This document shows, in pieces, positions 2,136 to 56,956 of a stretch of 64,000 bases of DNA. The notes below the pieces were generated by a model. That model was not told where the DNA came from and searched no databases. It was given only the letters and a program-made list of their open reading frames with translations. The stretch comes from Candidatus Iainarchaeum sp. (GTDB taxonomy: Archaea > Micrarchaeota > Micrarchaeia > Anstonellales > Bilamarchaeaceae): contig JAQTME010000001.1 of NCBI GenBank assembly GCA_028714535.1, forward strand, positions 69,955-133,954. The letters are read 5' to 3'. Both the position numbers and the translations under genes were made by a program. Within the stretch, counting starts at the first letter, position 1. Every line of letters starts with the position of its first letter.

Positions 2136-2150
2136 CTGGCCCTGGTTGTG

Positions 2151-2933: not shown

Positions 2934-2983
2934 CGCTTTTTCCTCAGGAAAAGGTTTATATCGCCAGTTGCCGTTAGTGGAAC

Positions 2984-3718
2984 ATGGCCCAGCCCGCTGT
3001 CCAGGTCAATGAGCTCACAAAGATAATAGACGACCGGATAGTGGTGGACAGGATATCGTTCTCGGTGGAGGAGGGCGAGCTGTTCGGCCTGCTGGGCGCC
3101 AACGGCAGCGGCAAGACCACAACGTTCAACATGCTCGCCGGCCTGCTGTCGCCGTCTTCCGGCACGGTGACGCTCCTGGGGAAAAGCATAAAGGAGATGC
3201 AGAAGAGCAAAAGGCCGGAGATAGGCTTCGTAACCCAGGAGGACTCGTTCTATGAGACGCTCACTGTGGAGGAGAACCTGAAGTTCTTCGCGGACATGTT
3301 CGGCATGCCGGGCGTGGAGAGCGATGCGGCGATACGCAAGCTCCTGAAGCAGATGAGGCTCACGGAGAAGGCAGACACCATGGCCTCGCGCCTGTCCGGA
3401 GGCATGAAGAAGCGGCTGAACATGGCGTGCGCCATAGTCCACGACCCGAAGATAATATTCCTGGACGAGCCCACGGTCGGCCTCGACCCGGTAGTGCGCA
3501 AGGAGATATGGGCCCTCATAGAGTCGCTCCATTCCGAGGGCAAGACGATAATCATAACGTCGCACTACATGGACGAGGTCGAGCGGCTGTGCCACCGCGT
3601 CGCGATCATGTACTCCGCGAGGCTGGTGGCCAGCGGAACGCCCGCAGAGCTGAAGACGAAGTACAAGCTCAAGCAGATGGAGGATGTTTTCGCCGAAGTG
3701 GCGAAGCCGGTGTCCTGA
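2984..3718 (+). CDS. ABC transporter ATP-binding protein (ABC-2/DrrA-like)
   Basis: Walker A GANGSGKTT, signature LSGGMKKRL and Walker B IIFLDEPTVGLD. Its stop overlaps the ATG of the next gene (ATGA). Confidence 0.85.
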   Translation: MAQPAVQVNELTKIIDDRIVVDRISFSVEEGELFGLLGANGSGKTTTFNMLAGLLSPSSGTVTLLGKSIKEMQKSKRPEIGFVTQEDSFYETLTVEENLKFFADMFGMPGVESDAAIRKLLKQMRLTEKADTMASRLSGGMKKRLNMACAIVHDPKIIFLDEPTVGLDPVVRKEIWALIESLHSEGKTIIITSHYMDEVERLCHRVAIMYSARLVASGTPAELKTKYKLKQMEDVFAEVAKPVS

Positions 3719-5691
3719 TGAAATTCCTTTCTGCCATGCGCAAGGAGCTGCTGGAAATCATGCACGACCGCACCATGCTGGCAGTGCTTGTCATATTCCC
3801 GATTTTCATAATGGCATTCATGGGAAGCTCGTTCCGTTCCATGGAGATAGTCGGCCTGCCCATCGGCGTGGCGGGGGCGGCCAACACCACGTTCGCGGCC
3901 GCGCTTTTCAGCAGCATAAACGAATCGCACGCCTTCAACCTCCAGGGCTTCCCGTCAGAAGCCGAGGCCCTGGACGCGTTCAGGAACGGCCGGCTGAGGG
4001 CGGTCATAGTCGTCCCGCCGGATTTCGATGCGAACATCAGGCGGGGCAGCGGCTCCGAGGTGCGCGTGCTGGTTGACAATTCAGACCTGGCGCTGGAGCA
4101 GGCGATGCTCGCGGCGATGTCGTCTGTCATCGAGGCATCTTCCGTGAACATAACCAAGGGATACGTCTATTCCGCGTGGGAGGACCTGAAGGGCCTCAAC
4201 GCCTCAGCGGCTTCGCTCAGCGAGCAGATAACCGCCACGAAAAGCCGAATGGAAGAGACTAAGACGAGCCTCGCGGCCGTGCGCGGAAGGATAAATGAGC
4301 TGAGCGTATCCACACTGGAGGAGACGCTGGGCAATGCGTCCAGCGACGTAACAGGCATGCGCCAGGTGCTCCTGCAGCAGAAGGGGGCCCTGGCAAACAT
4401 CTCCACGAGCAGCGGTGAGCTTTTCAGCCAGAGCGATGCGTTCCTCGCCAACGCCACCGGCGCGATTAACCAGTCCATAGCAAGCGTTGACGATACGCAC
4501 TCGAAACTGGCATCGCAGGTGGCAGGCCTGAACAACAGCCTGCACACGCTTGACGCGTCAATAGCCGGCCTTGAGCTTATAAAGAACGCCACGCCGGACA
4601 ACCTGACGAAGGCGGCCCTGGACCTCAACCTGGCCGGCCTGCGCAGCCTCAGGAACGACACCGCGGTGCAGATGGCGAATGCCCAGGACGAGATGGCGTC
4701 GTTAAGGGAGCTGAACGCCACGCTGCAGAACACGTCCGCGTCCCTTGCCGATTACGCAGCATCCGTATCGGCCGCGAAAAATGACGCCGCATCGCTGGAT
4801 GATATGGAAACCGCGCTGAACAACGCGGCCGGGGCCCTGGACAGCCTCAACACATCGTTCAGCGGCGCGCGGGCGCAGGTGAGGGAGCTGAAGGCCCTGC
4901 TGGCGGACATAAACTCCACCAGCGCGCAGATAGAGGGGACGCTGGATGCCGCGCTGGCGCAGGCATCTTCGGTCGAAACCCTGATAGCGTCGCTGGAAGG
5001 CACCGTCGCTGAGCAGACCGGCAAGGATCCGGCCCTGATAGCGTCGCCGCTTTCGGTGAAGGTGGAGGGCCAGTATGCACGGCAGAGCTTCGTGGACTTC
5101 ATCATGCCGCAGGTGATATCGGTCTCCCTGCTGTTCTCCTGCTTCCTGCTCGGCTCTGTGAGCCTGGTGCGGGAAAGGACCAGAAAGACGATAATACGCG
5201 CGCTGCTGGCGCCCGACGGCTTCGTAAACCTTGTGGCCGGGAAGATAGCCACGCTGATGCTCCTTTCGTTCGGGCAGATAGCCCTGATACTGGTGGTGGC
5301 GTCGCTCGTGTTCGGGGTGAGGGTGCCGAACGACTGGGCGCTGCTCATGTGGGGCACGGCAATATCGTCCCTTGTGCTCTCCTCAATCGGCGTGCTCATA
5401 GGCTTTTATGCGAGGAGCGAATCGTCTGCCATCCAGGGCTGCCTCCTCATCGCCATACCCATGCTTTTCCTCGGCAACATCGTGTTCTCCCCGGACCTGC
5501 TTCCGGCGTATACGCAGGTGCTGCAGCAGGCCCTTCCGCTCGCGCACGTGACCAGCATATTCAAGGTCGTGCTGGTAACAGGAGGCAACCCGGCAGCGGA
5601 CGTGATGGCGCTCCTGTCCTATTTCATCCTGCTGATGGTATTGCTCGCCTACGTCCTTGTGAAGAGGCGTGACATAAGCAACTACACATAA
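3718..5691 (+). CDS. ABC-2 family permease with a large extracytoplasmic coiled-coil domain (YhgE/Pip-like)
   Basis: One N-terminal TM helix, a roughly 400-aa Ala/Leu/Ser-rich predicted coiled-coil region with N-x-S/T sequons, then five or six C-terminal TM helices. Translationally coupled to the ATPase. The ORF track's 3427 start overlaps the ATPase in another frame and is rejected. Confidence 0.7.
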   Translation: MKFLSAMRKELLEIMHDRTMLAVLVIFPIFIMAFMGSSFRSMEIVGLPIGVAGAANTTFAAALFSSINESHAFNLQGFPSEAEALDAFRNGRLRAVIVVPPDFDANIRRGSGSEVRVLVDNSDLALEQAMLAAMSSVIEASSVNITKGYVYSAWEDLKGLNASAASLSEQITATKSRMEETKTSLAAVRGRINELSVSTLEETLGNASSDVTGMRQVLLQQKGALANISTSSGELFSQSDAFLANATGAINQSIASVDDTHSKLASQVAGLNNSLHTLDASIAGLELIKNATPDNLTKAALDLNLAGLRSLRNDTAVQMANAQDEMASLRELNATLQNTSASLADYAASVSAAKNDAASLDDMETALNNAAGALDSLNTSFSGARAQVRELKALLADINSTSAQIEGTLDAALAQASSVETLIASLEGTVAEQTGKDPALIASPLSVKVEGQYARQSFVDFIMPQVISVSLLFSCFLLGSVSLVRERTRKTIIRALLAPDGFVNLVAGKIATLMLLSFGQIALILVVASLVFGVRVPNDWALLMWGTAISSLVLSSIGVLIGFYARSESSAIQGCLLIAIPMLFLGNIVFSPDLLPAYTQVLQQALPLAHVTSIFKVVLVTGGNPAADVMALLSYFILLMVLLAYVLVKRRDISNYT

Positions 5692-16743: not shown

Positions 16744-19700
16744 TGGATGGACGGGCGGGTTTTGGCGATTTTGATTGCAGCTGCCGCACTGCTACTGATT
16801 TATTTTGTCTATACCGGGGCAACGGCCCAGAAAAAAGCGGACAGGACCGTGATCGTCCTTGGCTTTGACGGCATGGACGCGCGCCTTGCCGAGCAATGGA
16901 TGGACGAAGGCAAGCTGCCGAACCTTGCACGGCTGCGGGCCATGGGAACCTATTCGCGCATCCAGACCACGACCCCTGCTGATACCCCGGTAGCCTGGAC
17001 CACGGTTGCGACCGGGCTCAACCCCGGGAAGCACAATGTCTTGGACTTTCTTGACCGCGACCCTGCAACGTACATGCCACGGATTGCCCTGATAAAAAAG
17101 GAGGAGACAGGAGGCGGAAAGCCGCTCGTGTTCAACCTGAAGCAGGGGGAGCCCATATGGAAGACCGTGAGCGACAATGGGGGCAGGAGCACTGTGATAA
17201 CGGTCCCTGTGACCTTCCCTGCAGAAGATTTCGATGGCAAGATGTTATCTGGCCTAGGAACGCCCGACATACGCGGGACCTGGGGAACGTTCACGGCCTA
17301 TGTGGAAGGCGGGGAGGGCGGGGACAGCCTCATGGGCGGAAACTTCGTGCCCGTGGAATTCGAAGGGGGAGTTGCAAGCACCGAGCTCCGCGGCCCGAAG
17401 GAAATGGCGATAAACATGACCATCACCCGCACTGCGGATGGTGTGAAACTGTCATTTGGGGGGAAGGAATACGCCCTTAAGCAGGGGGAATGGAGCGAAT
17501 GGGCGGACATACAGTTCGAGGCCAATCCGTTCGTGAAGGTCAAGGGAACCGGCAGGTTCTACCTGATTAGCACGGACCCGCTCAGCCTTTACCTCATGCC
17601 GGTCAGCCTGGACCCCAGGGACCCGTTCTTCAGGATTTCCACGCCGGAATGGTATTCGCGCCAGGTCGCAGAGGACGATGGGCTCTACAAGACCGTTGGC
17701 TGGGCTGACGACACCTGGGCGCTCAATGACGACGCCATAGACGAGCAGGTGTTCCTCCAGGACGCCTACAGGACCCTGGAGCAGAAGGAGAAGCTCGTGC
17801 TTGATGAGATGGAAGAAAAGCCGGACCTCCTCATGGCGGTTTTCTATCAGACCGACACCGTCCAGCACATGTTCTACAGGTACATGGACCCGGAAAATCC
17901 GCTCTATGGCAGCATAAGCCCGGAAGAGAAGGAAAGGCACAAGGACGAGATACTGCGCGTCTACCAGAGGATGGACGAGGCTGCCGGCAAGGTCATGAGC
18001 AAAGCTGGCCAGGACGACGTCATAATCGTCATGAGCGACCATGGCTTCAACCCTTTCAGGAAAGCAGTCAATCTGAACACCTGGCTGGCAAATAACGGGT
18101 TCCTTGCAAAAAAGCCCGGCGCAAACACATCCTATTACAAGCTCAACAGCCTCTACGGCGAGCAGGGGCTTTTCTGGAACGACGTCCTGCTGAATGAGAC
18201 GCAGGCCTATTCCATGGGCCTTGGCAACATCTACATAAACCTGAAAGGAAGGGAAGCCCAGGGGGCTGTGGGTGTGGAACGGTATGACGCGGTCCGCGAC
18301 CGGATAATCAGGCAGTTGAAGGAGCTCCGGGACCCTGAGACAGGGGAGAAAGTGATCGCAGACGCCCAGAAGCGCGAGGATTTGTATTCGGGCCCCTATA
18401 TGGATAACGCCGCGGACATCGTGGTCTCGTTCAACCCTGGCTACCGTGTGTCGTGGCAGACTTCGCTGGGCGGGGTGCCGCCGCACGTTATTGAACCGAA
18501 CCTCAAGAAATGGTCCGGGGACCACTGCACCGTGGACCCGAAGCAGACCGAAGGGGTGTTCTTCGTGAACCGCGTTATGGGTCTTGACGGAGAGCCTTCG
18601 CTCCAGGATGTGAACCCCACGCTCCGCAGCCTTCTCGGCCTCCCGGCCAATGAAAGCCTGGACGGCATGTCGATGCTCCGCGATGGCAATGAAACCGCAG
18701 GCCCAGAAGCCGGCTGCAAGGACTGCAACGTCCTTGTCATAACCATGGACGACGTCCGTGCCGACTATCTTCCTCTTTTCAACCCCAAGGCGCTTGCGGA
18801 AACCCCGAACCTGGAGGCGCTCGCTTCAAAGAGCGTGCTGTTCACCAACGCGCACACGGCATTCACATTCACCTGCCCGTCGCACACCATCATGATGACC
18901 GGCAGGTATTTCACGGACGATGACCGCCAGACCAGCCTTCCCCGGATTCTGAAGGGCAACGGGTATGCCACCGGCGCCACGGTCGGGTTCGCCGGCCTGC
19001 GGCAGGAGGAGTGCCCCACCGGCGCAATGTTCGGCTACTACGATGAAAGCAGCACGGCTATAGGTTTCGGAGAGCGTGACGATAATTCTGCCGCCCAGGC
19101 CATGACATGGCTGCAGAACCACAGCAAGGGCAGGTTCTTCTTCTGGCTGCATCTTTATGACGCGCATCCCTTCGGGAAAGCAGCCAACGCCAGCGCGACC
19201 GGCAGCTATTCCGAGAGGATAGGGCAGATGGATGGCCACATTGGGGAGGTGCTCGCATTATTGGACAGGCAAAACCTAACCAACAAAACCATCGTGGTGG
19301 TCCTATCGGACCATGGGATGGGGGCGGATTTCGCCCACCCCGCCAATAACAGGCAGCTCTACGACCTGGCGACCCACGTTCCGATGATGATATACGTCCC
19401 TGGCGGGGCGCCAGCCAGGGCCGAGGGTCTTACGAGCACGGTGGACCTGGCGCCGACCCTCGCCGCGCTTCTTGGCGTGCACTACGCCGATGCAGATGGG
19501 GCTGCACTGTTAGATGCGGACGGCACCCTGGTTCCGGGGTCCGCAAGAGACCACGTATTTGCGACTTACCGCGCGCTCCAGGTGGTGCAGCACATGGTAC
19601 GCACCAATGAGTGGAAGTATATTGTGACCATGATTGAAAACGGCAACACCAGTTATGAGCTCTATAACCTTGCCCAAGACCCCGCCGAGAGCCGGAACCT

Positions 19701-19890
19701 CTATGGCAGCCAGCCGGAGATTGAAGCGCGGTTGAGAGGGCTCCTGCAGGGATACCCGACGGCAATGCCGGGCAGGCTCCGGGGCCTGGGCATGCCTGGG
19801 GCCATGACTGGTTGGTACGGTACCACCACTGCCACCCCAATGAGCAACCAGACCAGGGACGAGCTCCGCTCGCTGGGGTACATAAATTAG
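16744..19890 (+). CDS. membrane-anchored double alkaline-phosphatase-superfamily protein (N-terminal PglZ/NPP-like domain, C-terminal sulfatase-like domain)
   Basis: N-terminal TM anchor. Domain 1: GFDGMDA…TTPADTPVAWTT nucleophile-Thr motif. Domain 2: DDVRADYL…TFTCPSHTIMMTGRY, a sulfatase CxPxR signature with H in place of R, and DHGM later. The 16699 ATG leaves only 3 bp to the divergent UbiA start, so 16744 is preferred. Confidence 0.65.
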   Translation, partial: WMDGRVLAILIAAAALLLIYFVYTGATAQKKADRTVIVLGFDGMDARLAEQWMDEGKLPNLARLRAMGTYSRIQTTTPADTPVAWTTVATGLNPGKHNVLDFLDRDPATYMPRIALIKKEETGGGKPLVFNLKQGEPIWKTVSDNGGRSTVITVPVTFPAEDFDGKMLSGLGTPDIRGTWGTFTAYVEGGEGGDSLMGGNFVPVEFEGGVASTELRGPKEMAINMTITRTADGVKLSFGGKEYALKQGEWSEWADIQFEANPFVKVKGTGRFYLISTDPLSLYLMPVSLDPRDPFFRISTPEWYSRQVAEDDGLYKTVGWADDTWALNDDAIDEQVFLQDAYRTLEQKEKLVLDEMEEKPDLLMAVFYQTDTVQHMFYRYMDPENPLYGSISPEEKERHKDEILRVYQRMDEAAGKVMSKAGQDDVIIVMSDHGFNPFRKAVNLNTWLANNGFLAKKPGANTSYYKLNSLYGEQGLFWNDVLLNETQAYSMGLGNIYINLKGREAQGAVGVERYDAVRDRIIRQLKELRDPETGEKVIADAQKREDLYSGPYMDNAADIVVSFNPGYRVSWQTSLGGVPPHVIEPNLKKWSGDHCTVDPKQTEGVFFVNRVMGLDGEPSLQDVNPTLRSLLGLPANESLDGMSMLRDGNETAGPEAGCKDCNVLVITMDDVRADYLPLFNPKALAETPNLEALASKSVLFTNAHTAFTFTCPSHTIMMTGRYFTDDDRQTSLPRILKGNGYATGATVGFAGLRQEECPTGAMFGYYDESSTAIGFGERDDNSAAQAMTWLQNHSKGRFFFWLHLYDAHPFGKAANASATGSYSERIGQMDGHIGEVLALLDRQNLTNKTIVVVLSDHGMGADFAHPANNRQLYDLATHVPMMIYVPGGAPARAEGLTSTVDLAPTLAALLGVHYADADGAALLDADGTLVPGSARDHVFATYRALQVVQHMVRTNEWKYIVTMIENGNTSYELYNLAQDPAESRNLYGSQPEIEARLRGLLQGYPTAMPGRLRGLGMPGAMTGWYGTTTATPMSNQTRDELRSLGYIN

Positions 19891-46607: not shown

Positions 46608-47243
46608 ATGACCATGAATCCTCCTGCTGCTAACCTGCAGCAAAGAGTCGTAGTGGAAGTCTGCCACAAGGACAGGCCATTCTGCCCCTTTGCGAAGCGG
46701 AATCCGCTCCCAGACGGCATAAGATACGAGCGCATCCATGTCGGTCCCTTCCACATCCCCGGCATGGGCAGCACAGGCGACGGCGATTTCTTTAGCGCCG
46801 GGAGAATATTCCAATTCCCCCTCGTATCCCTGGGCAGCCATTCAGTGCATGAGCTTTACCTTTCCGAGGTCCCGACCAACCCCTTCCTTGACTCATCCCT
46901 TTTCTCGCTGCTGGTGAGCGAAGCCCATCGCGTCCTCGACCCGTCCGGCACCCTCGTCCTGTTCAATGGCTATTTCAACTCCCCCTCGAAAATAATCATT
47001 GATTTTAGCGCCGGCTGCGCCGGCCTTCCAAAATTCCAGAGGTCTAAAGGCGCGCCTAAGGAGCTCTTGATCTCTGGAATCGCAGAAGCAGGCAATTTTA
47101 TCGACATGGTCGACCGCCTGAACGAACACTTCAGGCCGCTCACCCTTCCTGAGCACACAAAGTTCCTCATGGAAAGGGACCTTGGCCCGGCGACCGAGCT
47201 CCAGCCCGGCGACCAGATATCCGTGTTGGCAGCGAAACACTAA
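46608..47243 (+). CDS. hypothetical protein
   Basis: 211-aa ORF with a protein-like composition; the opposite-strand ORF here is Arg/Gly-rich junk. No family recognised. …RVLDPSGTLVLF… vaguely resembles a methyltransferase motif. Confidence 0.35.
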   Translation: MTMNPPAANLQQRVVVEVCHKDRPFCPFAKRNPLPDGIRYERIHVGPFHIPGMGSTGDGDFFSAGRIFQFPLVSLGSHSVHELYLSEVPTNPFLDSSLFSLLVSEAHRVLDPSGTLVLFNGYFNSPSKIIIDFSAGCAGLPKFQRSKGAPKELLISGIAEAGNFIDMVDRLNEHFRPLTLPEHTKFLMERDLGPATELQPGDQISVLAAKH

Positions 47244-48985
47244 AAAGAGCGGACGAGCGCGCGCCTTATCTCGGCGAACAGCGCCTTCTCGTCCTCGCTG
47301 AGCATGTGCAGCTGCCCGTCCCATTTCTTCAATTCGTCGACAATCATGTAGGTGTAGAGAAGCTCGCCCTCGGCCACGTTCTTGCCTATGGATATCCCGT
47401 CGCAGGATATGGCCAGCTGGTCGCCTGCCGAAGCCTCGGTGACCTTTTCCTTCTCCTTCTGTATCTCCCTTATCTCGCCTACGACCTCGCCGGCCTTGTT
47501 CATCAGCCTGTAGCCGCTCTTTATCCTGCCTGCGAGCACGTCCACGCCGAAGACCGCCGGCTTGGACGCACGGAACACGTACCCGTCCAGCACCTTTATC
47601 TTGCCTGGCCATGTGAGCTTCTCCAGGCTCTCCTTCTTCATCCTCTTCCTGCTTTCCTCCACCCACTCCTTGTAGTTGTCTATGAGCCTGTAGACTATGT
47701 CGCTGGTGATTATCGGGATCTTGCTGTTCCTGCTCTCTTCGGCTGCCTCGTCCAGGATGCTCACATTGAACCCCAGGACAACGCCAAGGAACGGGTCCTG
47801 CTGCGCCACAACGCCGGCAGCTATGACCTCCTTGCGTGTGATGTGACCGACCGACGCCTCGCGTATTGGGATATTCTCGTTGGCCAGAAGCTTCAACAGC
47901 GCCTCGACCGAGCCCAGGCTGTCCGCCTTTAGAACAACCCCCGCCTCGCCCTTCTTCTCGAATATGATGTTCTTGAACTGCACCTCTATGGCCGCGCTGT
48001 CGCGCTCGAAGTCTTCGACCACCTCGAGCGGCGAGCCGGGTATCGCCCCTTCCAGGCCCGGGGCATAGATTTTCACGCCTGCGGCGGCGACCACCGAATC
48101 CACGTTCAGGTACTTCTCCCCGCCGCCGAGGTTCGGCAGCAGCAGCCCCCTGACCTTGGTCTTCTTCACCCCGTTGATGGTCATGTAGGCGATATCGTCG
48201 TTCTTCCTGAGTATGCCGTCGTAGAGTATGACATCGACCGTGGTCCCGAGGCCCTTCTCCTCCTTGACCTCCATGACGCTTCCCTTGCCCCTGCCGTTCT
48301 CGTCGATTTCAAGGCTTTCGCCGAGAAATCGCTGGCTGAGGCCAGCTATGAGCACCAGGAGCTCGCTCAGCCCCTCCCTGGTCTTGGCGCTCACCGGTAT
48401 TATGGCTATCTGCTTCGTGAAGTCAGTGACCTTGTCGTACCTCTCGCTGTCGAATCCGTGCTCTGATATCTTGCCCATCAGCCCGTAGAGCTTATCATCG
48501 AACGCACTCCTGACGTACTCAGGCTGCTGGCTGTAGGACTCCATGAAGGACAAGGTCCCATGGCTCTTCCACCCATTGAGGGCGTCTATCTTGTTGGCGG
48601 CCACTACGAAAGGCGTCTTGTACTGCTTGAGTATCTTTATGCTCTCAATGGTCTGTGGCTGGAACCCCTGGTTGATGTCCACTAGCAGGATGACCAGGTC
48701 CGCTATGCTGCCCCCCCGGTCCCTGAGGTTGCCGAAGGCCTCATGGCCGGGCGTGTCGATGAACAGAAGCCCGGGTATCCTCAGGGTCAGCTTCATCTTC
48801 GCGGCCAGGTCCTTTGAGATGGCATCGATGTCCGCCCTGGAGACGTAGCTGGCGCCTATCATCTGGGTTATGCCGCCAGCCTCCTTCTTGGCCACGGCCG
48901 TGCCCCTGATGCTGTCAAGCAGCGAGGTCTTGCCGTGGTCCACATGGGCCAGCAGGCAGATTATCGGCGAACGCGTGAATTTCAT
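47240..48985 (-). CDS. infB: translation initiation factor aIF5B (IF2 homolog)
   Basis: G-domain motifs AHVDHGKTSLLD, DTPGH and NKID with C-terminal beta-barrel domains. Start taken at MKFTRSPI (48985). No intein. Confidence 0.85.
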   Translation of the reverse strand: MKFTRSPIICLLAHVDHGKTSLLDSIRGTAVAKKEAGGITQMIGASYVSRADIDAISKDLAAKMKLTLRIPGLLFIDTPGHEAFGNLRDRGGSIADLVILLVDINQGFQPQTIESIKILKQYKTPFVVAANKIDALNGWKSHGTLSFMESYSQQPEYVRSAFDDKLYGLMGKISEHGFDSERYDKVTDFTKQIAIIPVSAKTREGLSELLVLIAGLSQRFLGESLEIDENGRGKGSVMEVKEEKGLGTTVDVILYDGILRKNDDIAYMTINGVKKTKVRGLLLPNLGGGEKYLNVDSVVAAAGVKIYAPGLEGAIPGSPLEVVEDFERDSAAIEVQFKNIIFEKKGEAGVVLKADSLGSVEALLKLLANENIPIREASVGHITRKEVIAAGVVAQQDPFLGVVLGFNVSILDEAAEESRNSKIPIITSDIVYRLIDNYKEWVEESRKRMKKESLEKLTWPGKIKVLDGYVFRASKPAVFGVDVLAGRIKSGYRLMNKAGEVVGEIREIQKEKEKVTEASAGDQLAISCDGISIGKNVAEGELLYTYMIVDELKKWDGQLHMLSEDEKALFAEIRRALVRSF

Positions 48986-49142
48986 AGGGATGCCTTCCAA
49001 TGGCTGCAAACAAGGCTTCTATTTCATCTACAGTATTCTAATCCTTTCCCCTGGCGCCGACAGGCATGAATTTCCACCCTCAAACACATGTATTTATAAA
49101 CACTTTCAGCCATAAATATCCATATCACAGGCAGGCGATTTA

Positions 49143-52100
49143 ATGGTTGCAACCCAAATCATCGAGAAGAGGCCGGCTATGCCAAAAAAGGAGGCAAAGG
49201 CGGTCTTGAGGAACATCGAGATTCTGCTCTCCAAGGCGATGGCAGGCAGCAACGGCACTGCCCACAGCGCCCTAGGCGATGCAATCACGGCATTCTCAGG
49301 CCTTGACCCTGCATTGCAGCTCAAACAGCTCGACGCCGTGGCCAAAGCGCTGAAAAGGTCCTCCAAGGGCGTTTTCACATGCAAGCAGCCGAGGCGCGCG
49401 CCTGACGCTTCTATCCTGGAATCCAAGGCCCACGTCGTGGACGTTCTTTCTGCTTTCCTTGCAACCGCTGCCCTGCACGTCCCCCGCAACCAAGAAGACG
49501 GCTCCATCATATTCCCTATCAATAAGAGGGGCCAGACTGTGGTCCCACGGCCCTATGAGAAGATTTACACCGCCCTTGCAGAGGTCGGCGACTCAGCCCC
49601 TGTAGCGAACCCGGCGCATGCCAACGCGCGCATCAAAGCCAGCGCGGCCCTCTGGGAACTCGAATATGGGCACATCCCGTTCTGGATCGCGAGGGTGGAG
49701 GACCCTGTCACCCGCAGCCAGGCAATAGACTATCTAGTCAACATGCCAGGAACCGATGGCTGGAACATCCTGGAAAGCCTGCTGGACCGGTATGGCACAG
49801 ACATCGCCAGGTCCCCATCGCCGGCGGCAGCTGAATTCCTGCTCAGGTCAGTGCAGCGCACGGACCCTGCAGTCGCCTGCGCAGCGCTCCGCGCATCCGC
49901 ATACCTCACACGCATCCACCCGGAGATCCTCGATATCGCACAGCGCATGCAGCTCCCTCCCCCGGCGCCGTCCGGTCTTGTTCCACCTGATGCATTGGAT
50001 AATGGTGCGATGAAGACATTCCTTCCCCCGCCAGTTCCAGAAGGCCCGAAGCCCATAGCCTGCGACCCTCAAATCAAGCAGGCCGCGGCAGAGCTGCTGT
50101 TCGTCAACGACGCACGCAAGTTTTCCGCAGATGGCGACTGGTTCGCAGGCGCGTTCGCCCTCGTCATGTTTTACAAGGCAGGAGGCAGGGAATGGCTGAG
50201 GCCGATGCTTGAGGGCATGTGCGCGCAGGCAGAGCAGGCTGCAACCGAAACCATCGCCACCCCGGCCAGCACGCAGCACCAGGACGCACTCCGCATCCTC
50301 GGCGTCCTCGGCATCGCAGGCATAACCGTGCAGGGCGATCTCCAAAATGCTTCAACCACGTACACTTCCAAATCCCCGGAGCCCGTGCCAAAGGAGGCTA
50401 TCGAGGCCGCGGCAGGCATGAGCGCAGCAGACTGCGTGCTCTCCACCGCGATATACCTCGACCGCGTTCCGAGGCAGGTGATTGATTTCGCCGCAGTCCA
50501 GGCAGCTTCTACCCGCGACCAGGCCACCATGAACACGGCCATGGACGTCCTTTTCATAGCCGAGGCAAAGGAAATGCTCGCACAGGGATATGACAGGCAA
50601 TTCGCAGGCACGCTCGCGCTCGCGCTCCTTTACAAGAGCGACAGATATGCACAGAACGGCAGGTATGACATAAAAGCCATGGTTGAAGGCATGGCGGTGT
50701 CCACCGCCGATGCCGGAGCCAAGGTCCAGGCGAGGCTGGAGCGGCTCCAACTACTCCGCGCCGGCAGCGCAGCCCTCGATGCCATGGCCAAAGATGCGAA
50801 AACCAAAGAAGGCTTCCCAATCGACACCGGAGCCGTGGCAGCCAAACAATCTGAGCTCCGCGAGGAAATAGCAAAACTCGCGAAGACCGAAGCCAGCGAC
50901 ATGGCGCAGCTGAGCATGGCGAACAGCGCCCTGCTGGCCCTGCACCAGCTGGGCATAGATGCGCCTGGCCTTGCCTACCCGGTAAATCCTGCGCCGCTTC
51001 CCCAGGACGTTATCAACGGCGCGGTCATCAGGCGGGTGCCGGCCTGTGTTCTTTCAGCAGGCATTTACCTCGATCCTCTTCCAGCAGAGATGACCGCCTA
51101 CGCAGAATCGCTCTATGGCGACGCCGCTGCAGACGCAAAAACCGCAGCCTGGGAATTTCTGCTCATAAAGGACGCTGCAGGCAGCACCGATTATGCTGAT
51201 GGCAGGCAGTTCAAGGCAACCCACGAACTCCTGGACCTCTACAAGGCAGGCCGCAAGGACCTCGGTCCGCTCCTCGTCGACCAGGGCATCGAGATGGCAG
51301 ACGTCATCATGAGGCCAAGCACCCTGGAACAGCGCACCAAGGCCTGGAATCTGCTTGAGGCCATTGACCGCGCAGGTGTGGACCTCGCAAGTCACAGGCT
51401 GCGCGCGGCAGCGTATCTCAACCCCATCCCGGCGGCCATGCTTTCATTCGCAGAAGCCCTGCTCGCGCAAAAATCCGTGCCTGCAGGCCTTCAAGGCGCC
51501 GCCCGCGACCTCATCGCCATAAACGATGCGAAGAATGCCATCGCCCAGGGCAGCATGTTCACAGGCGGCCATGCACTCGCTGACCTTGCCAACAGCGGCA
51601 GCGTGCACCTCAGGGACATGGTGGAGGACACAGGCGCCCAGGCAGTGCTCACCATTGCCGGCGCCTCCGATTCACAGGCCCGCCAGAAAGCCATGCGTCT
51701 GCTTGCCTCGCTCGCGAACGTAGACGTGCCAGGCGACGCCCTTTTCAGGGTGGCTCTTGCACAAGAAATAAACCCTGATGTCCTGACAGTTGCAGAAGCC
51801 ATCGCCTCAGGCAATTACCCCCAAAGCGTCAAAATGGCCGCAGAGGATCTTCTCACAATTAATTACGCGAGGTACCAGCTTGCCATCGCAGAACAGCAGT
51901 TCGATGGCGCCCAGGCGCTCATAGACCTGTATTGTGCAGGAAGGCATGAACTCGGGCAGATGCTTGATGAGCAGGTCGCCCCGCAGATGCTCCGCGTGTT
52001 CGCGAACGCAAGCGCCCAGGGCCTGCAGGACGCAGCAATGGGTACGCTCGCCTCGCTTTACGCTTCAAGGCCTGATGCGGTCCGCATGCCTCTGGCCCAG

Positions 52101-53105
52101 ACAGCCGAAACCATGCTCAGGGAACTCAAAAGGCCGGGCCGTGGAACCTCGCGCATGCGTGAAGCCCACGGGCTGGCGCTGCTGGCAGGCATAGACGACA
52201 AGGCCGTCCAGCAGGTGGTGATGCGCGCGGCAACAGACCTGGCAATAGTTTTCACCCACCCGAAGGGCAAGACCCTCCAGGAGAAAATTGCCCGCCAGAC
52301 CGAGGCCGTTGAAGTCATGCAGGGCGCGTATCCACTCATGAAGGCAGATATCGCCAAAAAGCTCGGCGACAACGTCGATGCCATGGTCGGCATTGTGAAG
52401 TCATCCTGGTCCGGAACCCATACGCAGGAGCTCGCAGCCAACTGGCTCGCTGGCCTGCCGGCCATCGCAAATGGGAATCTGGCCGAAGGGGACGAGCTGC
52501 ACGGCATGATCGCCACAGTAGGCGCGGAGATGGTGGGCATACTCGCAGAGCCTGAGGGCCACGATGCAGGGCAGATGGGCAAACAGCAGGCAAGTGCCCT
52601 TCGCGTCCTTGGAAGGGCCTATCCACACGCCCGGAAGGAGCTCCAACCGATAATCCGTGCATCCCATGAAACATTGATGAAAAAACTCGCAGAGGCTGAA
52701 GGCATGACGCCACGCTGGCAGGCGGCGGTCACCGCTGTCACCAGCATGTTTATCGCCACCAGCGACATGCACATACATTCAGGGTTCGAAACGCTGTGGA
52801 AGAGCGAGTTCAGTAGCCTGAGGGATGCGCTTGCGCAGAAGGATGCCGCGCGCGTCGAGACGATATCCAGCAGGATAACATTCATGCACAACACGTTCAC
52901 AGGCGCATGCGTGCAAGACGAGCAGAGGATACGCGTGCTCGGGGTAATCAAGAGCCTGCCGGTGGAAGATAAGCCGCCAAAGCCGGCGCCAGTGGCACCT
53001 GAGCCTGCTGCGCCCGTGGTAACCAGGACAGGCCTCGCCGGGCTCTGCAAAAAGTATGGCAACTGGGTGGAGAAGCGCCTGGGGCTCGAGCAGTGTGCAA
53101 GGTGA
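49143..53105 (+). CDS. giant Ala-rich cytoplasmic tandem-repeat protein, no recognisable domain
   Basis: 1320 aa, no signal peptide or TM helix. At least five degenerate 115-200-aa repeats, each with an A-x-YL-x-P-[IVL]-P…[ML]-x-[FVI]-A-[EQ] segment and an [LF]L-x-[IV]-N-[DY]-A-[KR]…F-x-G…AL-x-[DL]-LY-K/C-AG-R segment. Repeat starts near 49900, 50450, 51060, 51410 and 51750. Confidence 0.6.
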   Translation: MVATQIIEKRPAMPKKEAKAVLRNIEILLSKAMAGSNGTAHSALGDAITAFSGLDPALQLKQLDAVAKALKRSSKGVFTCKQPRRAPDASILESKAHVVDVLSAFLATAALHVPRNQEDGSIIFPINKRGQTVVPRPYEKIYTALAEVGDSAPVANPAHANARIKASAALWELEYGHIPFWIARVEDPVTRSQAIDYLVNMPGTDGWNILESLLDRYGTDIARSPSPAAAEFLLRSVQRTDPAVACAALRASAYLTRIHPEILDIAQRMQLPPPAPSGLVPPDALDNGAMKTFLPPPVPEGPKPIACDPQIKQAAAELLFVNDARKFSADGDWFAGAFALVMFYKAGGREWLRPMLEGMCAQAEQAATETIATPASTQHQDALRILGVLGIAGITVQGDLQNASTTYTSKSPEPVPKEAIEAAAGMSAADCVLSTAIYLDRVPRQVIDFAAVQAASTRDQATMNTAMDVLFIAEAKEMLAQGYDRQFAGTLALALLYKSDRYAQNGRYDIKAMVEGMAVSTADAGAKVQARLERLQLLRAGSAALDAMAKDAKTKEGFPIDTGAVAAKQSELREEIAKLAKTEASDMAQLSMANSALLALHQLGIDAPGLAYPVNPAPLPQDVINGAVIRRVPACVLSAGIYLDPLPAEMTAYAESLYGDAAADAKTAAWEFLLIKDAAGSTDYADGRQFKATHELLDLYKAGRKDLGPLLVDQGIEMADVIMRPSTLEQRTKAWNLLEAIDRAGVDLASHRLRAAAYLNPIPAAMLSFAEALLAQKSVPAGLQGAARDLIAINDAKNAIAQGSMFTGGHALADLANSGSVHLRDMVEDTGAQAVLTIAGASDSQARQKAMRLLASLANVDVPGDALFRVALAQEINPDVLTVAEAIASGNYPQSVKMAAEDLLTINYARYQLAIAEQQFDGAQALIDLYCAGRHELGQMLDEQVAPQMLRVFANASAQGLQDAAMGTLASLYASRPDAVRMPLAQTAETMLRELKRPGRGTSRMREAHGLALLAGIDDKAVQQVVMRAATDLAIVFTHPKGKTLQEKIARQTEAVEVMQGAYPLMKADIAKKLGDNVDAMVGIVKSSWSGTHTQELAANWLAGLPAIANGNLAEGDELHGMIATVGAEMVGILAEPEGHDAGQMGKQQASALRVLGRAYPHARKELQPIIRASHETLMKKLAEAEGMTPRWQAAVTAVTSMFIATSDMHIHSGFETLWKSEFSSLRDALAQKDAARVETISSRITFMHNTFTGACVQDEQRIRVLGVIKSLPVEDKPPKPAPVAPEPAAPVVTRTGLAGLCKKYGNWVEKRLGLEQCAR

Positions 53106-53110
53106 ATGGC

Positions 53111-53356
53111 ATGGACGAAATCTCAGTCATCCTGGAAATGCTTTCAAGCAAGAGCGTGCTCACACGCAAGGAAGCGATAAAGCAGCTGGCAGCGCACCTG
53201 CACCTGAAGGACGCCTACATGGCCAGGCTGTCCCTGCATTACATATCAGAGCACGACCCTGCCTGGACAGTACGCAACATCGCCCGCCAGGCGTTCTACC
53301 GCATAGGCGCGCCGCCGTCAAAGGACGCCACTTGGGACAAGGCGTATGTGTTCTGA
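53111..53356 (+). CDS. small HEAT-like (PBS-lyase-type) repeat protein
   Basis: 81 aa. …RKEAIKQLAAHL…EHDPAWTVRNIARQAFYRIG fits the PBS-lyase HEAT-like pattern. Starts 5 nt after the giant gene's stop, with GGTGA upstream. Confidence 0.4.
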   Translation: MDEISVILEMLSSKSVLTRKEAIKQLAAHLHLKDAYMARLSLHYISEHDPAWTVRNIARQAFYRIGAPPSKDATWDKAYVF

Positions 53357-53365
53357 GTTATCCGG

Positions 53366-53388
53366 GTGTGGGGAAACCCACTTTTTTA
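53366..53388 (+). terminator. stem-loop + T6 tract, putative transcription terminator
   Basis: GTGGG-GAAA-CCCAC hairpin immediately followed by TTTTTT, 10 nt after the HEAT gene stop. Confidence 0.3.
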
Positions 53389-53489
53389 AACCCTTCGAAA
53401 CATCAATATTCCAGGAAGCTTAGAATTATTGTTCCCGGACAGTGGTCCGGCCGATTCTCAGAGCGACCGCAAGAGCAAGGTGGAAAATA

Positions 53490-53984
53490 ATGCAAAAATC
53501 CCTAACAACCAGACCCATCGCCCTGTCTGCTGCCAATCCTAAGCCAGTTGAAAGGCTGCAGTTGCATGCAAAGACCATCGCAGACAGGAAGGTGGTCCTT
53601 GTCGTTCCAAACGTAGAATCAGACGAAAGCGTCGAGCAGTTCGCCGATCTCACCCGTCGCTGTCTGCCCACTGCCAACCTTTCGCCCATCTCTTGGCCGA
53701 CCTTCCTAAAGAATCTCCCAACCCTCGATGCGGACATCATATTCATAACCAGCATGAGGGGCGCCCCCGACGACTTTGGTGCGCTGAGAGAAGGCTTGAA
53801 AGCATTCAGGGGCAGGAACCACAAGGCGGTCGTCGCCATGGCAAACGCCCACATGGAGAGCATCACAGTGCGCTCACTCCAATCAGCTAATCTCATTGAC
53901 CATGTGGAGCACCAGGCTATTTTCTCCCTGTCATTCCTGGCCGAAGGCGTTGAATTGTTCACAAGGAGGCAGGAACTTCGGTAG
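53490..53984 (+). CDS. CheY-like receiver-fold protein lacking the phospho-acceptor Asp (pseudo-receiver)
   Basis: Paralog of the next gene (KAVVAMANAH vs KAVVIAGKPA; DADIIFIT vs KDLIILD). Thr occupies the aligned phospho-Asp position and the conserved Lys is absent. ATG at 53490 has GGTGG upstream. Confidence 0.4.
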   Translation: MQKSLTTRPIALSAANPKPVERLQLHAKTIADRKVVLVVPNVESDESVEQFADLTRRCLPTANLSPISWPTFLKNLPTLDADIIFITSMRGAPDDFGALREGLKAFRGRNHKAVVAMANAHMESITVRSLQSANLIDHVEHQAIFSLSFLAEGVELFTRRQELR

Positions 53985-53993
53985 GCTGATGAT

Positions 53994-54704
53994 ATGCACA
54001 TCCCTCAAAATCCTGAAAAACCAGTTGCAGTTGCGGCTGCAGCCCCCGGCAAGCCACGCCTGGCTGCCGCGCCGCTTATCAGCCGCAGCGCCAGGAAAAT
54101 AACTGACGTCCTCCAACACAAGCGCGTATGCCAAGTGCTGAACGACAAAAGCTTCGAAATGTCTTTCCGCAGCCACGTCGCCATAGACTATGATCACCGG
54201 TCCAAATTCGAGATAAAGCCAGGCGAACCGATAGACCCGCTTCTATTGGACTCCTGCATGACCATCACAAACATGTCCGTGTTCCTGCGCATGCTTCCTG
54301 CCCGGCAGGAGCATGAAGCGGGCCAAACGGCCCCCAAGGCGCCGTTCCTGTCAAAGGACCTCATAATCCTGGATTCGCCTGTGCTTCTGGAGACGGATGC
54401 ATTCGATACGCTTGAGGCCGGCCTCGCGGTTTTCCGCAGCACGCACCCCAAAGCTGTAGTCATTGCCGGAAAGCCGGCAGATGAGGCGGCCATGCTCCAG
54501 ATGAAAGTGCTCAAGGAGAAGGGCCTCGTGGACATTGTGGTCACCAAACCCCGCACGTCCTCCAAGCTCATGCTCTGCGGAGCGAATATCCTCGAGCAGA
54601 AACTCCAGAAATTGGGCGCGGCATTAGAGGCTGGAAAGGTGGCACTGCACTGCGACCCAGCCGACGTCCACGAAACCGTGCTCATAGAGTCCATTCAGAA
54701 ATAG
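53994..54704 (+). CDS. divergent CheY-like receiver (REC) domain protein with an N-terminal extension
   Basis: Residues about 80-186 follow the REC pattern: …LLLD… (beta1 acid), …DLIILD… (phospho-Asp candidate), …AVVIAGKPADEAAM… (beta4) and …DIVVTKP (conserved Lys). Confidence 0.45.
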   Translation: MHIPQNPEKPVAVAAAAPGKPRLAAAPLISRSARKITDVLQHKRVCQVLNDKSFEMSFRSHVAIDYDHRSKFEIKPGEPIDPLLLDSCMTITNMSVFLRMLPARQEHEAGQTAPKAPFLSKDLIILDSPVLLETDAFDTLEAGLAVFRSTHPKAVVIAGKPADEAAMLQMKVLKEKGLVDIVVTKPRTSSKLMLCGANILEQKLQKLGAALEAGKVALHCDPADVHETVLIESIQK

Positions 54705-55149
54705 GGTCAAACATCAGTAGCCAATTGTAAACCCGACGAAATTCGTTGATAAATGGCACACTCATTACATTCTCCGCCACAAACTCAATAGGGACAAACC
54801 ATAACTTCTTAGATGCTAATGATCTCCTCATTAGTTCTATTTCGTGGGAGTCCGACTGTTCGAGCATTTTTTTTGGTTCGTTTTTCTTAAAAAATTCCCT
54901 ACATACCTCTCTGTGCAAAAGATTGCGATTATAATTAATCGCTAGGTATTCCAGCGAATTCCTCAAGCATTGTTGTTCCTGTTTTTTGGCCTTTCCTTCA
55001 GAGGTTTGTATTTTGTAGAATTGTTCTAGTGAAACGAACGACATCTTTTGTAAAAGTTCCAGCTTACGGAGATTAGTATTACGATGCACTGTAATTACTG
55101 CAATGACTGCAGCCAGGACACCAACGCACAATGCCTCATAGTCTGCCAT
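54682..55149 (-). CDS. hypothetical protein encoded in an AT-rich island next to tRNA-Val
   Basis: 155 aa with an N-terminal TM helix and a Lys/Glu-rich remainder. Lies in a ~38% GC segment that contrasts with the ~60% flanks. Confidence 0.35.
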   Translation of the reverse strand: MADYEALCVGVLAAVIAVITVHRNTNLRKLELLQKMSFVSLEQFYKIQTSEGKAKKQEQQCLRNSLEYLAINYNRNLLHREVCREFFKKNEPKKMLEQSDSHEIELMRRSLASKKLWFVPIEFVAENVMSVPFINEFRRVYNWLLMFDPISEWTL

Positions 55150-55183
55150 CCTAACCCACCTCCGAAAACCTAAAACAAAAAAT

Positions 55184-55256
55184 TGGGCCCACGCGGGATC
55201 GAACCGCGAATCTCTACCATGTCAAGGTAGCGTCTTAACCATTCGACTATGGGCCC
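55184..55256 (-). tRNA. tRNA-Val (anticodon GAC)
   Basis: Manual fold of the minus strand: acceptor GGGCCCA/TGGGCCC, anticodon stem CTACC/GGTAG with loop TTGACAT, T-arm CGCGG-TTCGATC-CCGCG and discriminator A. CCA is not encoded. Confidence 0.8.
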
Positions 55257-55315: not shown

Positions 55316-56956
55316 TCACTCGCCGTGCGTCTCGCCGGCCGATTTCGAGGGCTTGCCCCTGAAATCCTTGGCCGCCTTCATGAACTCCACGAAAAGCGGC
55401 CCTGGCGTCTCGAGCCTGCTCTTCAGCTCTATGTGCGCCTGCGTGGCGACGCCGAAGCTGCCCTTCCACTCGGTCATCTCCACGACTCCCTTGGGGTGCG
55501 TGGCTGATACCACGAGGCCGTGGTCTTCCAGTTCCTTGACGTAGTTGGGGTTGACCTCGTACCTGTGCCTGTGGCGCTCGGATACGGTGTCGCTCTTGTA
55601 AGCCGCATGTGCGACGGTCCCGGCATTCACCTTGCAATCATAGGCGCCGAGCCGCATGGTCCCGCCCATCTTTGAAATCTGGTGCTGCTCAGGCAGCATG
55701 TCTATCACCGGATGGGGGGTCTTCTTGTCGAACTCGGTTGAATTCGCGTTCGCAAGGTTGCACTTGTACCTCGCATATTCAACAACCATGAGCTGGAGCC
55801 CCAGGCAAAGGCCGAGATACGGCACCTTGTTCTCGCGCGCGTATCTTATCGCCATTATCTTGCCCTCGATCCCGCGCTCGCCGAACCCGCCAGGGACGAG
55901 TATGCCGTCGTAGGGCGCAAGCACCTCGGCGACATCGCCCAGCTTCTCGAGGTCGCTGGCCTCTATCCAGCCGATCTCCAGTCCGCTGTTGACCGCAGCC
56001 GCACCGTGCACCAGCGCCTCCTTGACGCTGATATAGGCATCCTTCACAGCCGTGTATTTGCCTACAATGGCTATCTTCAGCGGCCTGTCCTTTGGCTGGA
56101 GGATGTGTGTGACGTTCTTGTGCCATTCCTTCAGGTCCGCTTCCTTGTTGGGCAGGTCAAGCTTCTTCGCCAGCTGCGCATACAGCCCCTGCTTCTCCAG
56201 GATGAGCGGCAGCTCGTATACTGTCTGCAGGAGCGGGTCGTCGAACACCGCTTCCTCGGCAACATTGCAGTACAGGCTTATCTTCTTCTTGGATTCCTCG
56301 GTGAGCTTTTCCTGCTCGCGCGTTATTATTATGTCCGGCTGGATGCCGAGGCTCTGCAGCAGCCTCGTGGCCTGCTGCGTCGGCTTGGTCTTCTGCTCGC
56401 CGACGCTCAGGCTCGGGATGTAGGTCAATTGCACGAACGCCATGTTGTTGTGCTCGAAATGCAGCTGCCTAAGCGCCTCTATGAAATATCCGTTCTCCAG
56501 GTCGCCGACCGTGCCGCCGACCTCTATAAGCACGAAATCAGCGTCGTTGTCCCTGCCCACTTTCTGCACCCAGGCCTTTATCTCGCCTGTGAGGTGAGGC
56601 ACGAACTGCACGTCCCTGCCAAGGTATTCGCCCTTGCGCTCCTTCTCTATTATCTTCTGGAACAGCTTGCCCCCGGTTATTGAGCATTCGCCTGGCAATG
56701 ATTTGTTGAGGAATCGTTCGTACGTCCCGAAGTCCATGTCCACCTCGGTCCCGTCGTCCAGCACGAAGACCTCTCCGTGCCTGAACGGGTTCATGGTGCC
56801 GCAATCAACGTTGAGATAGCCGTCGAACTTTATCGGCACGACGTTGAAGCCCCTGGCCTGCAGCAGCTTCGCGATAGAAGAAGTCACTATCCCCTTGCCG
56901 AGCCCGGACATGATGGAGCCGGTAATCACAATGAACTTGGTCTTTTTTTCTGGCAT
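55316..56956 (-). CDS. pyrG: CTP synthase
   Basis: 546 aa. N-terminal synthetase domain (KFIVITGSIMSGLGKG) and C-terminal GATase1 with a Cys nucleophile (GLCLGLQ). Confidence 0.9.
   Translation of the reverse strand: MPEKKTKFIVITGSIMSGLGKGIVTSSIAKLLQARGFNVVPIKFDGYLNVDCGTMNPFRHGEVFVLDDGTEVDMDFGTYERFLNKSLPGECSITGGKLFQKIIEKERKGEYLGRDVQFVPHLTGEIKAWVQKVGRDNDADFVLIEVGGTVGDLENGYFIEALRQLHFEHNNMAFVQLTYIPSLSVGEQKTKPTQQATRLLQSLGIQPDIIITREQEKLTEESKKKISLYCNVAEEAVFDDPLLQTVYELPLILEKQGLYAQLAKKLDLPNKEADLKEWHKNVTHILQPKDRPLKIAIVGKYTAVKDAYISVKEALVHGAAAVNSGLEIGWIEASDLEKLGDVAEVLAPYDGILVPGGFGERGIEGKIMAIRYARENKVPYLGLCLGLQLMVVEYARYKCNLANANSTEFDKKTPHPVIDMLPEQHQISKMGGTMRLGAYDCKVNAGTVAHAAYKSDTVSERHRHRYEVNPNYVKELEDHGLVVSATHPKGVVEMTEWKGSFGVATQAHIELKSRLETPGPLFVEFMKAAKDFRGKPSKSAGETHGE

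Follow-up and report, generated by a model that had tools for sequence, protein, structure and literature searches.

What kind of system is encoded by four adjacent genes of a micrarchaeon when each of them is annotated as a hypothetical protein? The genes occupy positions 49143 to 54704 of a 64,000-nucleotide (nt) stretch of Candidatus Iainarchaeum sp. (Micrarchaeota; assembly GCA_028714535.1, contig JAQTME010000001.1, positions 69,955 to 133,954, forward strand), which was analyzed as a whole and is referred to here as the window. An initial annotation had interpreted them as one scaffold plus regulatory-adaptor system, composed of a giant repeat protein, a small HEAT-like protein, and two CheY-fold proteins. 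Our analysis confirmed the underlying observation and supported its interpretation in part. The conserved unit consists of two genes, i.e., the large gene and the 81-amino-acid (81-aa) gene that follows it. We judge it about evenly balanced whether this pair encodes a soluble HEAT-type scaffold, specific to Micrarchaeota, and a conserved small subunit that is translated along with it, with the repeats as a variable binding surface and the pseudo-receiver-like neighbors only loosely associated. The four genes are as follows.

49143-53105, plus strand: giant gene; 1320 aa, ATG start, TGA stop at 53103-53105; NCBI MDD5339742.1.
53111-53356, plus strand: 81-aa gene; ATG 5 nt past the giant TGA; NCBI MDD5339743.1.
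53490-53984, plus strand: 164-aa gene; 164 aa from ATG, 180 aa from the GTG at 53442; MDD5339744.1.
53994-54704, plus strand: 236-aa gene (PHV13_00670); predicted CheY-like-fold protein.

The NCBI annotation has the identical four calls, each as a hypothetical protein (MDD5339742.1 to MDD5339744.1; locus tags PHV13_00655 to 00670). Regarding possible frameshifts in the giant open reading frame (ORF), a separate Logan assembly of run SRR22315509 (L006) was 100% identical over 10.5 kb and contained the 1320-aa ORF uninterrupted; the frame is therefore unbroken, so far as assemblies can tell. Pfam, NCBIfam, PADLOC, and PHROGs contained no family covering any of the four proteins, none of which matched a PADLOC or PHROGs profile at E ≤ 0.01, and a literature search found no paper on the solenoid/81-aa family described below. 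The four proteins are predicted to lack transmembrane helices, as the Kyte-Doolittle value stayed under 1.6 in every 19-residue window. The giant protein had been described as lacking a signal peptide, a transmembrane helix, and a known domain, and indeed none was detected (no match to Pfam or NCBIfam).

The giant protein can be divided into three parts.

49200-49955, plus strand: family-defining N-terminal helical domain (about aa 20-270); the stretch that most of 49 homologs match best.
49872-52067, plus strand: repeats R1 to R5, degenerate helical units starting near aa 244, 427, 630, 748, and 862.
52068-53105, plus strand: C-terminal region (aa 976-1320); further regular helix pairs continue as far as aa 1199 or beyond and give way to a Pro-rich linker, with TGLAGLCKKYGNWVEKRLG as the tail.

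The starts of R1 to R5 are spaced by 183, 203, 118, and 114 aa. Nine of the 10 pairwise local alignments between repeats scored 4.7 to 16 standard deviations over 200 shuffles, the only other pair being R1-R3 (z score of 2.0), and a hidden Markov model (HMM) built from the five repeats detected five or six copies in each of the homologs at loci L001, L007, and L011 (E of 1e-11 to 1e-24). The presence of at least five degenerate repeats, as originally proposed, is thus backed statistically. The repeats emerged solely when anchored segments were compared with shuffles and when the HMM was used; a plain blastp comparison of the protein with itself gave no off-diagonal matches, and no DNA-level repeats were found in 48900-54800 beyond chance-like 28- to 33-nt matches of 71 to 75%. 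Because both of these searches were empty, we consider the repeats to be old and degenerate.

An AlphaFold2 (AF2) model of aa 1-1200, computed from a 21-row alignment, had a mean predicted local distance difference test score (pLDDT) of 88.6 and a predicted template modeling score of 0.63, and it comprised 56 helices with essentially no strand. According to its helix boundaries, R3, R4, and R5 each consist of six helices in about 115 aa, and R2 contains one additional helix of 47 residues (aa 508-554). In a Foldseek search against the PDB, all of the top 50 matches were long helical-repeat proteins, mainly HEAT solenoids, including importin-4, RanBP5, Kap121/123, CAND1, SF3B1, UTP10/20, and mTOR/TRRAP (E of 5e-8 to 1e-5; 9 to 13% identity; template modeling [TM] scores of 0.10 to 0.16; >1100 aligned columns). 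Both lines of evidence indicate tandem antiparallel helix pairs forming an alpha-solenoid, as had been anticipated from the repeats. Pfam HEAT profiles (PF02985/PF13646/PF03130) gave no match to the giant protein, and hence none above the gathering score. We confidently predict that the giant protein is a soluble, tandem-repeat, HEAT-type alpha-solenoid.

The closest structural analogs suggested by the model are the eukaryotic HEAT solenoids (importin-beta/karyopherin, CAND1, and SF3B1), which act as flexible protein-binding scaffolds. Like these proteins, the giant protein is a long single chain of antiparallel helix pairs with no other domain. Unlike them, it is built from a super-repeat of about 115 aa with six helices, it offers no Ran- or cullin-binding signature for comparison, and its host belongs to the DPANN archaea. 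The low identities and TM scores imply that only the local repeat geometry is common to both, and the resemblance is likely a case of convergence.

To define the range of the family, aa 1-1200 of the giant protein were compared exhaustively with 1.84 billion cluster representatives by phmmer (E ≤ 1e-3), and only 49 were homologous. Five of these were full-length long forms (1124 to 1327 aa, 40 to 46% identical to the giant protein), and another (P0016) was a 265-aa C-terminal fragment with 76% identity. Most of the others (196 to 1051 aa) matched best within part of the N-terminal ~250 residues, while two matched best in a repeat unit. Family members combine an N-terminal domain specific to them (about 250 aa) with between one and six downstream units of six helices each, for total lengths of about 390 to 1330 aa. 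Weak HEAT_2 matches were present in 3 of 45 members (best E, 1e-4). The protein had been characterized as Ala-rich, which holds for the window copy (17.3% Ala); however, because many homologs are, judged by eye, not Ala-rich, this looks like a composition effect of the 58% G+C genome rather than a family trait. Other searches were less productive: a word-index protein search with the whole giant protein yielded one homolog among the best 8000 candidates by shared words, the protein's own cluster being represented by a 43-aa fragment; the same type of search with an alignment of the N-terminal domain (A3) returned nothing; and a genome scan with patterns from the giant alignment, which were too specific, found nothing. 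The large proteins constitute a new, unannotated family of a known structural kind.

The N-terminal domain carries the motifs LP[KR]D..G, ALWEL.Y...FW..R..DP.T, HGW..L, and IA..SP.K..FL, and residues F105, W181, W207, L210, and F232 are invariant in A3. Its final ~80 residues reappear within other family members. The sole match in a PDB profile search with A3 was a designed coiled coil (E, 2e-5), which we read as a probable match of coiled-coil composition. At the other end of the protein, the tail TGLAGLCKKYGNWVEKRLG is kept in P0012 and P0016. Many family members open with a basic, probably disordered tail bearing a G-[LM]-[LF]-E-x-[WL]-x-R/K-rich motif (e.g., KPGLRERWKKKR and SGLFEGLRKRKE); such tails are found in the window (49143-49200) and in P0017, P0023, P0031, P0032, and P0042, and aa 1-8 of the window protein have a pLDDT of <50.

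The 81-aa protein was used as a probe to collect 12 GTDB loci and 17 metagenome loci, on which genes were mapped with HMMs. All 12 GTDB genomes with the 81-aa gene were labeled Micrarchaeota, Micrarchaeia, Bilamarchaeum, or "ainarchaeum". The usual gene order is aIF5B (minus strand), large-family member (plus), 81-aa gene (plus), often an S-adenosylmethionine (SAM) synthetase gene (plus), zero to two CheY-like genes (plus), and pyrG (minus). Of 26 informative distinct loci, 23 have a large-family member directly before the 81-aa gene. The CheY-like genes are less constant: among the 16 loci with enough downstream sequence, the family is present at 10 and missing at 6, and the SAM-synthetase gene often intervenes, following the 81-aa gene in 17 loci. 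The four-gene system originally proposed is therefore not a conserved unit, and the locus core would instead be a two-gene module specific to Micrarchaeota, of which the window holds the long form with five units. Two features bear on how the pair is expressed.

53101-53113, plus strand: coupling junction; GGTGA containing the giant TGA, then 5 nt, then the 81-aa ATG.
53369-53386, plus strand: short hairpin (gtgggg aaa cccac; 5 bp) with a run of six T residues (T6) at 53381-53386.

The tight spacing of the two genes, noted from the start, proved to be general: in 13 of 15 loci, the distance between the large-gene stop and the 81-aa ATG is -11 to +5 nt, usually with GGTGA overlapping or adjoining the stop, and this junction geometry is kept across the phylum. 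In view of the 3' end of archaeal 16S rRNA, we take GGTGA to be a Shine-Dalgarno motif. Mainly on the basis of the junction geometry, we infer that translation of the solenoid and the 81-aa protein is probably coupled, with similar yields of the two, and that they most likely assemble into a stoichiometric complex, in which the 81-aa protein, as the conserved small subunit, would dock on a conserved stretch of the solenoid. Regarding the hairpin and T6 that had been called a terminator downstream of the pair, the 5-bp hairpin and the T6 are present, while the fold energy of the region is ordinary and not significant (z score of -1.0). Oligo-T by itself is able to terminate archaeal transcription, and the T6 run is probably the end of the transcription unit of the giant and 81-aa genes.

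The 81-aa protein has an invariant core (ARL.LHY.SEHDP..TVR..A..FY...PP.....W), in which a D-P-x-x-T-V-R-x-x-A pattern, recognized by eye, resembles that of the Pfam families HEAT, HEAT_2, and HEAT_PBS (PF02985, PF13646, and PF03130), and it may thus form a HEAT-like helical hairpin. Its assignment to the PBS-lyase type did not survive: the 81-aa protein scored below threshold for HEAT (17.5 to 17.9 bits, with 17.5 for the window protein; cutoff, 23.5) and HEAT_2 (14.8 bits for the window protein; cutoff, 27.7), three or four of 15 orthologs gave weak matches, and HEAT_PBS matched none of the 15. Every match of these families to the 81-aa protein or the large family, in which some members also gave weak matches, was below the gathering threshold. 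Sequence and profile searches of the PDB with the 81-aa protein revealed no relative, and hhalign found its profile to be unrelated to the giant N-terminal domain. We rejected the possibility that it is a detached solenoid repeat or a part that is fused to the large protein elsewhere, given that its profile matched no large-family protein.

Two unusual contexts of the 81-aa gene were observed. In a marine lineage (L016 8352-9920 and L033 6352-7920), a 522-aa ORF with a radical-SAM-like CNRHCNHCG motif (CxxxCxxC), rather than a member of the solenoid family, precedes the 81-aa gene, 74 nt from its ATG. In L025 (3463-5654), the 81-aa gene comes straight after aIF5B (162-nt gap) with the large gene missing between them, and the downstream region has no SAM-synthetase gene (MAT), CheY-like gene, or pyrG; this arrangement indicates that the 81-aa gene can stand alone.

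The most striking property of the locus, which could not be seen in the initial annotation, is that the large gene differs sharply between close relatives. The aIF5B proteins of L002, L005, and L007 are 93 to 94% identical to that of the window, and in L002 and L005 pyrG is 95% and PCNA is 87 to 89% identical; L007 lies on a short contig without pyrG and PCNA. The background synonymous divergence (dS) among close relatives was 0.55 to 0.7. In blastn comparisons with L002 and L005, both flanks were 80 to 88% identical, no similarity was found across 49119-53098, and similarity resumed at 53099. The large genes of L002 and L005 are short forms (674 and 699 aa), 24 to 32% identical over ≤270 aa plus one repeat. 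L007, which is as close to the window as these two, has the long form (44% over 957 aa), as does the more distant L011 (aIF5B, 86%); thus, long and short forms are spread against the phylogeny of the flanks. The L007 gene (CAZYGF010000048.1) is split into two overlapping frames (834-1850 and 1709-5332; 338 and 1207 aa), because of a frameshift or an error in the assembly. Within the long class, the first ~135 nt and the last ~200 nt are 82 to 84% identical (82% to L007 for the final ~200 nt of the giant gene), while the interior is 64 to 69% identical. The ratios of nonsynonymous to synonymous divergence (dN/dS) were as follows.

aIF5B and pyrG (housekeeping neighbors): about 0.05.
dCMP deaminase/kinase gene (housekeeping neighbor): 0.04 to 0.14.
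81-aa gene: 0.10 to 0.16.
164-aa and 236-aa genes: 0.33 to 0.51.
Large gene: 0.39 to 0.51.

For the large gene, dS was about 1.0 or more, exceeding that of the flanks, dN was 10 to 30 times that of housekeeping neighbors, and dN/dS in 120-codon windows was 0.20 to 0.76, never above 0.76. This pattern fits the replacement of alleles through recombination, or else evolution that is diversifying or under very relaxed constraint. It is unusual, and had not been noted before, that a hypervariable large subunit is encoded next to a small subunit that stays constant, with both at one fixed site of the core genome. In our preferred reading, i.e., a scaffold with a constant small subunit, the rapidly changing repeats would provide a modular surface for binding proteins and would serve as a scaffold or an adaptor. 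A diversity-generating retroelement was considered as the source of the variation and rejected: no template/variable DNA repeat pair was present in 48900-54800, and no reverse transcriptase was found among the scanned window proteins.

The same data raise the possibility, which we consider real if clearly weaker, that the complex is a host-interaction protein caught in an arms race. The solenoid would then be under diversifying or frequency-dependent selection imposed by a changing partner, such as proteins of a host archaeon or a virus, and recombination in the conserved flanks would exchange its alleles, as in a replacement genomic island, with the 81-aa protein as the constant subunit. The loss of nucleotide similarity across exactly 49119-53098 between otherwise closely matching genomes argues for this possibility, as do the distribution of long and short forms, the divergence of the long-class interior relative to gene ends and flanks, the elevated dN and dS, and the fast evolution of the adjacent pseudo-receivers as well. 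However, dN/dS was <1 in every 120-codon window and thus positive selection is not demonstrated, and alpha-solenoids can drift fast without selection. The giant protein has no signal peptide or transmembrane segment, PADLOC and PHROGs gave no match, and there are neither DNA-level repeats nor retroelement-like template/variable pairs. The episymbiotic lifestyle of Micrarchaeota is background to this reading and is not read from the window.

A stronger version of this idea, which we regard as doubtful, holds that the large gene is a replacement-type hypervariable cassette encoding an intracellular sensor/effector solenoid, whose deeply diverged long and short alleles are maintained and exchanged between closely related Micrarchaeota via recombination in the conserved aIF5B and 81-aa flanks under an arms race with viruses or the host archaeon, and that the 81-aa protein and perhaps the pseudo-receivers form the constant signaling or output part. 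If true, DPANN archaea would possess a novel type of variable recognition system, built from wholly cytoplasmic repeat proteins.

The two small proteins encoded downstream are paralogous, as had been recognized, although weakly so (BLASTP E of 5e-5 and 31% identity over 72 aa; HMM cross-matches). We also saw the described difference at the acceptor position, with Thr in the 164-aa protein (IIFITS) and Asp in the 236-aa protein (LIILDS). In the window sequence, the latter carries ND where beta1 ends, D126 where beta3 ends, and K185-P186 following beta5 (VTKP). The Asp/Lys pattern for which it had been called a receiver is therefore present in the window but variable beyond it: among ten 236-aa orthologs, the acceptor is Asp or Glu, and the window protein shares K185 with P0003, its closest relative (88% identical), and with no other. 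In 12 distinct sequences of the wider family, the acceptor position is occupied by D, L, T, C, H, F, R, or N, and neither Thr/Ser nor Lys is conserved. Invariant residues of the 236-aa subfamily lie elsewhere, i.e., TITNMSVFLRMLP and K121-D122 (K/A-D before beta3).

Profile searches did not place either protein among receivers. PF00072 matched neither at E ≤ 0.1, the 164-aa protein had no Pfam match, hhalign of the 236-aa family profile with Escherichia coli CheY gave a probability of 0.3%, and PDB sequence and profile searches with the 236-aa family returned nothing meaningful. A CheY-like (flavodoxin-like) fold of the 236-aa protein is only moderately supported by modeling, and the 164-aa protein would share this fold, solely by its paralogy with the former. 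Consistent with the initial annotation, neither a histidine kinase nor CheA was found by a Pfam scan of 37 window proteins, including all selected ORFs of ≥300 aa, and the called genes of L002 and L005 included no kinase. Given the lack of similarity to PF00072 and CheY, the unconserved acceptor and Lys, and the absence of kinase and CheA from the scanned proteins, we read both proteins as pseudo-receiver-like, not as a pair of receiver and pseudo-receiver. The tandem paralogs may have lost, or never had, a conserved phospho-acceptor, and they would most likely be phosphorylation-independent binding modules (pseudo-receivers). They show no detectable sequence relation to known pseudo-receivers (e.g., the CpaE/TadZ N-terminal domains, BcsE REC*, and AmiR), from which they also differ in being stand-alone proteins with N- and C-terminal extensions and in the invariant motif of the 236-aa subfamily.

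The 164-aa protein evolves quickly, being 61% and 34% identical to those of relatives whose aIF5B is 93 to 94% identical, and its gene has a dN/dS of 0.35 to 0.5. The region upstream of this gene, together with its first codons (window 53374-53530), is 85% identical at the nucleotide level to L005 9378-9534, compared with 34% aa identity for the rest of the gene. In L005, this region sits just past the SAM-synthetase gene, which the window lacks at that site. The T6 run, the position of the SAM-synthetase gene in 17 loci, and this conserved region together suggest a separate transcription unit for the CheY-like genes, which would then be transcribed apart from the solenoid/81-aa pair and only loosely tied to it.

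These results make it quite improbable that the locus is the signaling system first proposed, with a functional phospho-receiver in the 236-aa protein and a pseudo-receiver partner in the 164-aa protein. The analogy would be to the haloarchaeal HEAT_PBS protein that contacts CheY at the archaellum switch. The closest conceptual analog, by its combination of an archaeal HEAT-like protein with a CheY-fold protein, would be OE2401F of Halobacterium salinarum, which acts with CheY and CheF (PMC2666748). This HEAT_PBS protein interacts with CheY, CheD, and CheC2 and is required for motor switching, and it was found only in the che gene regions of motile haloarchaea (PMC2666748). That precedent and the expected positions of ND, D126, and K185-P186 in the window protein speak for a signaling role. 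Nevertheless, no che or archaellum genes were found in the loci compared, and no histidine kinase or CheA was found among the 37 window proteins scanned; the 81-aa protein stays below every HEAT threshold and is unmatched by HEAT_PBS; and the lack of PF00072 and CheY similarity, the variable acceptor and Lys, and the absence of the CheY-like genes from 6 of 16 loci or their separation from the pair by the SAM-synthetase gene all count against it. We further regard it as very improbable that the large ORF is decaying or nonfunctional, whether a frame open by chance in 58% G+C DNA or an incipient pseudogene: despite the two-frame copy in L007, the missing gene at L025, L016/L033, and L035, and the extreme divergence, it is intact at 1124 to 1327 aa in several independent lineages, yields a confident AF2 model from a 21-row alignment, has a dN/dS of about 0.45 (well under 1), and conserves its N-terminal motifs and its junction to the next gene.

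The reading of the pair as a scaffold with a small conserved subunit is favored by the different constraint on its members (see the dN/dS values above). Several points weigh against it. The 81-aa gene occurs without an adjacent large-family member at L016/L033, L025, and L035, and the small protein can thus occur independently of the solenoid. The term "scaffold" could be applied to any HEAT solenoid and is silent on the ligand. Housekeeping scaffolds do not usually diverge as extremely as the large gene does, which matches an arms-race role better. As for the pseudo-receiver component, the structural model had a pLDDT of 58, and non-receiver flavodoxin-like folds scored almost equally.

Micrarchaeota and other DPANN archaea have small genomes and many lineage-specific genes without an assigned role. 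In nearly all relatives sampled, the module described here occupies one constant place in the core genome, but its large gene is among the fastest changing nearby; it is therefore a candidate for something that these cells must keep adapting, such as host or virus contact or changing clients. Long HEAT solenoids are best known from eukaryotes, and the locus, with a confidently predicted long solenoid and a constant 81-residue partner, is a well-defined test case. Even if the module is only a drifting scaffold, its analysis corrects the tempting two-component reading of the two neighboring genes.

The remaining features around the four genes are as follows.

47240-49009, minus strand: aIF5B.
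49091-49100, plus strand: TATA-box-like element tatttataaa, read from the sequence, ~45 nt 5' of the giant ATG.
55184-55256, minus strand: tRNA-Val.
55316-56956, minus strand: pyrG.

The TATA-like element lies inside the 133-nt divergent intergenic region common to the giant and aIF5B genes and, judging only from its consensus, may be an archaeal promoter. The scanned window proteins are ordinary housekeeping genes (e.g., eRF1, TrpRS/TyrRS, transketolase, purF, PheRS-beta, PEPCK, and an SMC-like protein) in DNA of 58% G+C content. Between the 236-aa gene and tRNA-Val, a 155-aa ORF (54682-55149, minus strand) has a hydrophobic N terminus and a weak match to phrog_18449 (E, 3.7e-5). The region 54680-55171 has no counterpart in the close relatives L002 and L005, and similarity picks up again at the tRNA; this region looks like a strain-specific insertion of ~0.5 kb beside a tRNA gene. 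A second spot without nucleotide similarity to L002 was found just upstream of aIF5B (46618-47244), where the window has a 211-aa ORF (46608-47243, plus strand) with no PADLOC or PHROG match and L002 has a 197-aa (plus) and a 180-aa (minus) gene instead. Farther away, a 1047-aa protein (16747-19890, plus strand) contains both a sulfatase domain and a type I phosphodiesterase/nucleotide pyrophosphatase domain, a fusion that is uncommon in a small DPANN genome.

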